This document shows positions 3,693 through 5,720 of a stretch of DNA of 64,000 nt, piece after piece; the stretch's first letter is position 1; each line of letters begins with the position of its first letter. Origin of the DNA: Sphyrna mokarran (taxonomy: Eukaryota); assembly GCA_024679065.1 (NCBI GenBank), contig JAGIQG010000006.1:72354001-72418000 (forward strand), written 5' to 3'. The notes beneath the pieces were generated by a model. That model ran no database searches. It was not told the DNA's origin and was given only the letters and a program-made list of their open reading frames with translations. The position numbers and the translations under genes were made by a program.

Positions 3693-5720
3693 CTCGACCA
3701 GTACCATCAAACAAGGGTTCAGTCCTGGTTCAATGCAGAGTGCAGACGGGCATGCCAGAGCAGGTAAACCTAAAAATGAGGCGTTAACCTGGTGAACCCA
3801 TAACACAGAACCATGTGGGAGTTAAAGAGTATAGTCAGCATGTGATAGACAGAGATAAGCAATCTCACAACTAACAGATCAGATCTAAGCTCTGCAGTGT
3901 TGCCACATACAGTTGTGAATGCTGGTGGAAATAAATAACTCATTGGAAGAAGAGGCTCCATAAATATTCCTGTTGTCAATGATGAGGGAACCCAGCATAG
4001 CAAAGCAAAAGATAAGGCTGAAGACGTGGCTACAATCTTCAGCAAGAAGTACTGAGTGGCTGATCCATCTTGGTCTCCTTTGGAGGTTCACAGCTTCACG
4101 GATGCCAACCTTCACCCAATTTGATATTAAGAAACATGTGAAGAATACTGCAAAAGCTACAGGTCCTGGCAATATCCCACAGTAGTATTGAAGACTCAAA
4201 CTCCAGAACATGCTATTCCAGTGCAGCTACAATACTGGCATCTACCTGGCAATATGGAAAATTGCCCAGGTATATCCTGTACACAAACTGCAGGACAAAT
4301 TGAACCAATTAACACCCCATCACTGTACTCTCAATCACCAGCAATGTGATGGAAGGGATCATCAGCCATGCAATTAAGCAGAACTTATTTAGCAATAACC
4401 TGTCACTGACATTCAGTTTGGCCGACTCAGCTCCTGACCTCATTGTAGTCTTGGCTTCAACATGTACAAAAGAGCAGAGCTCCAGGGATGAGGTGAGAAT
4501 GGTTGTGGTTGATATCAAGGCCTCATTTGACTGAGCATGGCTTCAAGATGCCCTAGCAAAATTGTTCCAGTCAGTGGGAATGAGGAGGAGAACTCTTTGC
4601 TGGCTGTTAGGTATCATAGTTATCACAAAGAAAGATGAATTTATTTGTCAATCATCTCAGCTCCAGGACATCACTGCAGAAGTTCCTCAGGATAGTATCT
4701 TTGGCTTAACCAACTTCATCAATGATCGTCCTTCTTACATAAGAGCAGAGTGGGATGTTTGCATGATATTGAAGCTGTTCATGTCCAAATGCAACAAGAC
4801 CGGGACAATGTCCAGATAAGTGGCAAGTAACGTTTGTATCGCACAAGTGCCAGGCAATGGTCATGAGAATCAAACCATTGTCCCTTGATATTCAATGTCA
4901 TTACGATCACTGAATCCCTCACTATCAACACTTTGGGGGAATTACCATTGACCAGAAGCTAAAGTGGACTACCCATATAGATACTGTGGTTTCAAGCACT
5001 GGTCAGAGGCTAATAATCCTGAGATTCACCTTCTGACTCCCCAAAGCCTGTTGACAATCTACAAAGTACAAGTCAGGAGTGTGATGGAATACTCTCCCCT
5101 TGCCTGGATGAGGGCAGCCCCAACACTCAAGAAGCTTGACAACATCCAGGACAAAGCAACCCACTGGATTGGCACCTCTTCCTGAAACATTCACCCCTTC
5201 ACCACTGATGAACAGTGGCAAACATGTTTGCCATCTTCCCAAGATGCACAGTAGGAACTCATCAAGGTTACTTAGACAGCATCTTCTAAACCCATGTCTC
5301 TTACCAGCCAGAAGGGCAAGGGCAGTAGATATATAGAAACCTGCAGGTTCATCTCTAAGTCACTTATCATCCTGACTTGAAAGTATATCCAGTAAGAGTC
5401 TGGCAACACCAATTTTAAATCCAACCGATTTATTTGATAATTTGGAATTTAAAATTGGTGTAGCCAGACTCTTACTGAGTTTACCCCAGTCCAACGCTGC
5501 CATCACTACATCTTGAAAGTATATTACCATTCTTTCACTGTTGTTGGGTCAAAATCCAAGAACTCCCTCTTTTAAAGCACTGTGGGTATACCCACACCCC
5601 ACTGACTACAGTAATTCAAATAGACAGCTCACTACCACATTCTCAAGTGTAGGTAGTGATGGGCAATGAATGATGGCCTAGCCAGTGAAGCCTATATCCC
5701 TTGAATGAATGAAAAAAAAA
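3693..5720 (+). mobile_element. 5'-truncated CR1-group (Zenon-like) non-LTR retrotransposon, decayed RT plus 3' UTR
   Basis: Fragments KATGPGNIP, WKIAQVYPVHK, VVVDIKASFD, EVPQDSIFG, IYKVQVRSVMEYSPLAW, LKKLDNIQDKA; ends in gaatgaatgaaaaaaaaa. Clade assignment is inferred. Confidence 0.85.
5389..5511 (+). mobile_element. Miniature fold-back Penelope-like element end (inverted arm + ~34-nt tail) with 13-bp TSD
   Basis: cagtaagagtctggcaacaccaattttaaatcc ... ggaatttaaaattggtgtagccagactcttactg, then tail agtttaccccagtccaacgctgccatcactacat. TSD cttgaaagtatat at 5376-5388 and 5512-5524. Homologous to 13320-13405. Confidence 0.85.

Follow-up and report, generated by a model that had tools for sequence, protein, structure and literature searches.

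Two short hairpin insertions flanked by target-site duplications in Sphyrna mokarran as very probable truncation products of a Penelope-like element

Two short insertions, referred to as E1 and E2, found in a stretch of 64,000 nucleotides of the Sphyrna mokarran genome (contig JAGIQG010000006.1, assembly GCA_024679065.1, positions 72,354,001 to 72,418,000; hereafter, the window), are very probably truncation products of a Penelope-like element (PLE), and can be regarded as the minimal case of an integration product already described for Penelope. In each of them, an inverted and a direct copy of the same short sequence are arranged head to head and followed by a tail at one end only, the whole being enclosed by a target-site duplication (TSD). 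The coordinates of all the features discussed below, including those of a longer copy (E3) and of an insertion of a second family (E4), are reported in Table 1.

The insert of E1 (positions 5389-5511 of the window) is 123 nt long and that of E2 (43486-43624, minus strand) is 139 nt long. An earlier note, made on the letters of the window, had described both as insertions with a perfect 13-bp TSD, and both duplications proved to be exact. In the case of E1, they are also corroborated by a paralog of the dispersed repeat in which the element lies: the alignment of the two spans the site with a single 136-nt gap, and the paralog carries the target in one copy (empty site). Since this gap corresponds exactly to the insert plus one TSD (123 + 13), E1 is a true insertion. 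The host repeat has an A-rich 3' end and is presumably LINE-like. No empty-site control was found for E2 within the 64-kb window. One additional C, at position 5389, separates the left TSD of E1 from the arm, and the corresponding bases are TG in the paralog and TA in the right TSD copy; this C may be either the 14th base of the TSD, the other copy having been altered by CpG decay, or an untemplated base. The boundary of E2 is ambiguous by 1 nt, a T opening both the TSD and the tail.

The window contains 14 exact direct repeats of at least 11 bp at a spacing of 60-400 nt, five of which are 13 bp or longer, versus 0-2 per shuffle in 20 shuffles. The three highest inverted-repeat scores inside these 14 repeats (46, 23, and 17) are those of E1, E4, and E2, respectively, and the next one is 14. 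The statement that each insert is a hairpin holds insofar as both fold, as DNA, beyond shuffled sequences (z = -12.4 for E1 and -5.9 for E2, with 0/200 equally stable shuffles in either case); E2, however, is not a clean hairpin, its pairing being limited to the outer ~22 bp (20/22 paired), with a local hairpin of 9 bp at the apex.

Table 1. Features of the window related to the hairpin insertions (positions are those of the window; a point marks features without strand).
Feature	Coordinates	Strand	Basis or remark
E1 left TSD	5376..5388	.	13 bp, possibly 14 with 5389; exact repeat, empty paralog
E1 inverted 5'-truncated pLTR-end copy, tail-less	5390..5439	-	matches 13319-13369 of E3
E1 direct 5'-truncated pLTR-end copy	5440..5477	+	starts at about 13329 of E3
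E1 Penelope tail, 34 nt	5478..5511	+	alignment; tail as conceived in PMC2377424 and PMC11167929
E1 right TSD	5512..5524	.	exact repeat
Empty-target paralog of E1 host repeat	15150..15470	-	target at about 15315-15327; alignment
E2 left TSD	43473..43485	.	13 bp, exact repeat
E2 tail, 37 nt	43486..43522	-	alignment to E3
E2 direct 5'-truncated pLTR-end copy	43523..43566	-	starts at 13324 of E3
E2 junction filler, 10 nt	43567..43576	.	short family-like AT-rich pieces
E2 inverted copy, tail-less	43577..43624	+	13314-13369 of E3
E2 right TSD	43625..43637	.	exact repeat
E3 inverted GIY-YIG endonuclease coding fragment	13138..13245	-	Pfam PF01541, E = 8e-4, under the curated cut-off
E3 sense scrap of the same endonuclease segment, 18 nt, at the inversion junction	13248..13265	+	0/2000 shuffles score as high
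E3 minimal type-I hammerhead motif	13275..13314	+	motif scan, fold; motif type as in PMC4209133
E3 pLTR 3' end (to 13369) and tail (13370 to about 13402)	13315..13402	+	alignment
E4 hairpin, tail, and TSD	22071..22355	-	putative second Penelope-like family, unrelated to E1-E3

The origin of the hairpins is disclosed by E3. Since in this longer copy the arm sequence continues into a predicted hammerhead ribozyme and adjoins a GIY-YIG endonuclease fragment, the hairpin sequence very probably corresponds to the final ~55 nt of a pLTR of Penelope/Poseidon type, followed by the tail of the element, and the Penelope-like origin advanced by the earlier note is, in this respect, well founded. Stem I (13275-80/13309-14) and stem II (13289-92/13297-300) of the hammerhead are both present in the computed fold; its core (13281-87) has a U at position 3, and the cut is predicted after 13308, that is, ~94 nt from the end of the tail, with U3 and the cut triplet deviating from the consensus. 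It is the only match to the strict minimal hammerhead in the 64-kb window, its position (13281) preceding the arm end by 60 nt; no match was obtained in the window with Rfam at gathering thresholds. Minimal hammerheads are carried by the pLTRs of PLEs, according to PMC4209133.

The endonuclease fragment of E3 is 35 codons long and lies on the strand opposite to that of the hammerhead. Over 30 aa, it shows 70% identity with residues 782-811, in the C-terminal part, of P0018, an 881-aa protein known by its domains, with RVT_1 at 370-559; the GIY-YIG domain located C-terminally to the RT, as in Penelope/Poseidon, could thus be recognized for E3 only, E1 and E2 being non-coding. A protein search with the fragment gave 21 matches, and a word-indexed protein search with the 45-aa frame gave none. 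No RT of the E1-E3 family was found in the window, where a tblastn search with six of the matched proteins retrieved the endonuclease fragment only. The arrangement of E3 appears to be head to head; no TSD was found around it at the score cut-off, imperfect repeats included, so that its derivation from one event is only tentative.

The arms of E1 and E2 were mapped using E3 as the reference. In both insertions, the inverted arm begins at the base matching 13369 of E3 (with an ambiguity of +/-1 nt), and the tail is 34 and 37 nt long, respectively, in full agreement with the fixed arm start and the unpaired tail of ~34-37 nt noticed previously. Upstream, the inverted arm goes 10 nt beyond the direct one in both E1 (13319 versus 13329 of E3) and E2 (13314 versus 13324), and therefore contains bases that the direct arm lacks. 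The apex bases extend the inverted arm, in antisense, and not the direct arm in both of these short copies (2/2): the best antisense matches of the apex are 12 and 17 nt long, versus 6 and 9 nt for the best sense ones. Compared with E3, the inverted arm of E2 has lost ~16 nt internally and has gained a short duplication. The ends of the four arms are clustered in an AT-rich stretch of 16 nt that lies 6-21 nt to the 3' side of the predicted ribozyme cut; clipping of the template, stalling at the fold of the ribozyme, endonuclease cutting in the AT-rich tract, or the choice of short copies in the earlier note may account for this. As for the arm/tail junction, a stem-loop of the sense RNA can be drawn over it in E2 and E3, and not in E1, its stability being that of shuffled sequences (z from 0.4 to -1.2), and the primer-template microhomology at the start of the inverted arm involves 4/5 bases in E2 and is weak in E1; no significance is attached to either of these features.

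E1 and E2 are identical at 99/137 aligned columns, and each of them has sequence unique to it. Four changes (two adjacent substitutions, one further substitution, and a 1-nt deletion) are common to both arms of E1 and absent from E2 and E3. On account of these E1-arm variants, of the identity value, and of the bases unique to each copy, the two insertions fit, at the sequence level, two independent events from related subfamilies. The apex differs between them, even though a 10-nt apex string is common to both; this string could represent a preferred apex. A common ancestor of E1 and E2, considered on the basis of this string and of the fact that the E1 apex is derivable by two deletions (n = 2), is unlikely.

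The layout described above is in line with what is known of PLEs. According to PMC8557442, it is typical of their insertions that a 5'-truncated copy stands inverted beside the 5' end and that one of the ends carries a tail of 30-40 bp. In Drosophila virilis, Penelope is described as having a 34-37-bp repeat at the 3' end, its termini being often inverted (PMC2377424), and the tails of E1 and E2 equal this repeat in length. The inverted 5'-truncated copy, the tail of 30-40 nt at one end, the TSD, and, in E3, the pLTR hammerhead are all found here, and the head-to-head disposition, the minimal type of the hammerhead, and the GIY-YIG domain are likewise shared with the endonuclease-bearing (EN+) Penelope/Poseidon elements. 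E1 and E2 differ from the latter in that both of their copies are cut to 40-60 nt of pLTR and contain neither ORF nor ribozyme. Moreover, the copies of Adineta vaga (Pen2a_Av), reported in PMC3846280 to have an inverted pLTR and a 31-bp tail, have a TSD of 8-10 bp versus 11-13 bp in the window.

The closest experimental counterpart is PAc, a Poseidon element of Anolis carolinensis, for which PMC11167929 describes the nicking and extension of both target strands in vitro, reverse transcription having two internal start sites, one on either side of the tail. As here, two adjacent starts delimit the tail, and the distance between the ribozyme cut (+26) and the start (+111-118) is 85-92 nt, versus about 94 nt in E3. 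The start site is given as equal on the two strands and AT-rich targets as preferred, whereas the AT content of the TSDs in the window is 77%, 54%, and 73%. Since the same work maps the tail boundary to one of the two start sites, the fixed arm/tail junction of E1 and E2, coinciding with the pLTR/tail boundary, is what the published internal start would lead one to expect; hence, the view of the junction as new or unexplained is not supported. In an older view, the tail was linked to endonuclease resolution (PMC8557442).

The same build was found in E4, whose insert (22082-22344) is flanked by an 11-bp TSD (22071-81/22345-55) and ends with an unpaired tail of ~29 nt (22082-22110). Its hairpin has a z of -5.7, and its arms, identical at 61/81 positions, both contain decayed hammerhead-like cores. 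E4 has no sequence in common with E1-E3, and its build and ribozyme-like motif point to a putative Penelope-like element. As a second family gives the same build, the layout consisting of an inverted copy and a tail would be a property of the mechanism, not of one family. The 47-nt loop of E4 (22213-22259) is 77% identical to 23117-23163, located ~900 bp downstream in the same orientation, and represents either flanking sequence captured at the junction or a further part of the element. A solitary, decayed E4-like pLTR end is present at 41919-42003 (67% over 88 nt), with no inverted partner seen.

The structure of E1 and E2 is accounted for, with moderate confidence, by a route in which both nicked target strands prime cDNA synthesis. 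The GIY-YIG endonuclease would nick the two strands ~13 nt apart, giving rise to the observed TSD; synthesis primed by one nick would start at the distal site and yield the tail and the direct arm, and synthesis primed by the other would start at the proximal site, located 34-37 nt further upstream, and yield the tail-less inverted arm. After 40-90 nt, both cDNAs would break off in the AT-rich tract that immediately follows the hammerhead on its 3' side; an error-prone end-joining process would then unite them head to head, in some cases adding a short templated filler, and would leave the variable apex that is observed. E1 and E2 would be independent, dead-on-arrival insertions of an endonuclease-bearing Penelope/Poseidon element, with the hairpin as a by-product for which no function is implied. 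A similar process is the twin priming of L1, in which a second nick primes a second cDNA, leaving an inverted and a direct segment head to head within one TSD and with messy junctions; there, the internal site at which the second primer anneals is variable, and neither segment is a repeat of the other. In E1 and E2, by contrast, the second cDNA would begin at one fixed site close to the 3' end, and the resulting overlap of the two arms produces the hairpin.

Priming from both strands is supported by the polarity of the apex in both short copies (2/2), by the hint of the same polarity in E3, and by an apex that is different in every copy, the evidence coming from two such copies of one family and one of another (E4). 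Confidence in it is kept moderate because a later asymmetric deletion at the apex of the palindrome could mimic this polarity. Against it stand the apex string common to E1 and E2, the equality of the two strands in PMC11167929, and the preference for self-priming expressed in PMC3846280; its application to inverted copies is proposed here, the in vitro account of PMC11167929 offering no model for them.

A rather unlikely alternative is fold-back, or self-priming, in which a nascent cDNA or an antisense RNA would snap back in the AT-rich tract and copy itself, and the endonuclease would terminate or cleave the product at the boundary of the tail. The 9-bp local hairpin at the apex of E2 and its filler, which looks templated, speak for this possibility, together with the short sense scrap of the adjoining inverted segment held in the E3 junction; palindromes at inverted junctions are reported in PMC3846280, whose authors propose self-priming on an antisense template. 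The four variants common to both E1 arms are also what copying would give, but they are equally expected from two cDNAs made off one RNA. Moreover, fold-back of a tail-bearing cDNA predicts a direct arm that is longer on the 5' side, and the opposite is found in 2/2 short copies; snap-back of a tail-less cDNA would require a second cDNA or an antisense template for the tail. The fixed start would also require an additional, precise stop, at a position where PMC11167929 places a start site. Of the proposal that these hairpins are the minimal product of a precise fold-back integration, the minimal form (an inverted copy plus a tail) is therefore retained, whereas a simple fold-back is disfavored by an apex that continues the inverted arm.

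It is improbable that E1 and E2 were once longer head-to-head PLE insertions and collapsed through a later deletion of their palindromic middle, an explanation compatible with either two-strand priming or fold-back. Long palindromes are prone to deletion, E3 resembles a long inverted pair minus some internal parts, and the deletion in the inverted arm of E2 is of the microhomology type; however, the four arm ends lie closer together in the AT-rich stretch than random deletion would place them, and heavy 5' truncation at insertion is described as normal for PLEs (PMC8969392).

Slightly more doubtful is a variant in which the hammerhead would clip or block the RNA to ~95 nt, both strands would prime at two fixed starts, and the cDNAs would meet at a preferred apex. 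The position of the arm ends, 6-21 nt from the predicted cut, and the common apex string fit this reading, but the sequences of E3 and E4 continue across their hammerheads, and in the in vitro data of PMC11167929 cleavage is dispensable and no reads ending at the cut are described. Since E3 and E4 pass through their ribozymes, a general rule that all short copies stop at the hammerhead was rejected.

The idea of a MITE-like, self-amplifying family, i.e., that the PLE protein acts in trans on the transcript of one hairpin-plus-tail copy and copies it anew, is very improbable. E1 and E2 do have a similar size, an equal TSD length, the same outer ends, and the common apex string, the E1 apex being obtainable from an E2-like one by two deletions, and non-autonomous PLE derivatives exist (PMC8557442; bioRxiv 10.64898/2026.07.22.740005). 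Yet the low identity of the two copies, each with sequence missing in the other, and their different apexes (n = 2) are at odds with a family homogeneous in sequence and length; the four changes carried by both arms of E1 and private to it would require concerted change, and the same build recurs in the unrelated E4. The non-LTR retrozymes described in the latter source are also short, non-coding vertebrate sequences related to PLE pLTRs, but they consist of head-to-tail tandem units, each with a hammerhead, whereas E1 and E2 are head to head and hammerhead-less. A DNA-transposon MITE with terminal inverted repeats, suggested by the short, non-coding, hairpin-forming, and TSD-flanked inserts with their inverted repeats, has a negligible probability: one end of the inverted repeat is not terminal, the 34-37-nt tail standing between it and the TSD, a retroelement is indicated by the sequence itself, which derives from the 3' end of a pLTR with a hammerhead and is associated with a GIY-YIG fragment, the TSDs are long and vary in length (13, 13, and 11 bp), and there is no evidence of a homogeneous family such as those of class II MITEs.

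Two scans of bacterial and archaeal genomes by DNA pattern, aimed at stray eukaryotic contigs, gave no match in the first and seven in the second, with ~9 expected by chance; the seven were dropped, none of them aligning over more than 37 nt. A literature search of partial coverage, whose outcome is weak evidence, found neither a hairpin mini-PLE family nor a study of shark pLTRs.

As to the remainder of the window, no host gene was found, and Pfam, run on 140 stop-to-stop frames of at least 72 aa, recognized 1/140, an RT at 49688-50668. A 327-codon open frame at 49685-50668 (minus strand; RVT_1, E = 5.6e-15), related to 10413-10554, is LINE-like and fairly intact. Three other exact 13-bp direct repeats (7592/7758, 10800/11007, and 19791/19875) enclose 71-194 nt and no hairpin, being possible short TSD-flanked insertions or local duplications. 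Local duplications are present at 57092-57273/57703-57883 (~610-nt spacing) and at 11929-12065/12413-12545 (~480-nt spacing), and a 16-nt tandem repeat of about four units occurs at 43204-43267, 200 bp to the left of E2. Dispersed SINE-like pieces, which may resemble elasmobranch SINEs, are found in both orientations (23337-23376, 40397-40615, 50660-50852, and 54131-54178).

In PMC8557442, the mechanism by which inverted copies of PLEs arise is presented as still undefined. Ultra-short TSD-flanked copies such as E1 and E2 retain, within about 150 bp, the target, the apex, and the two ends of the insertion, and their value is that of a cheap genomic test of the origin of inverted pLTRs; at the same time, programs searching for MITEs will mislabel hairpins of this kind. 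Should the ribozyme-bounded reading be true, the hammerhead of PLEs would have a role in vivo, priming on two strands would explain the inverted pLTRs, and some of these hairpins might be copied again and so give rise to a mini family.
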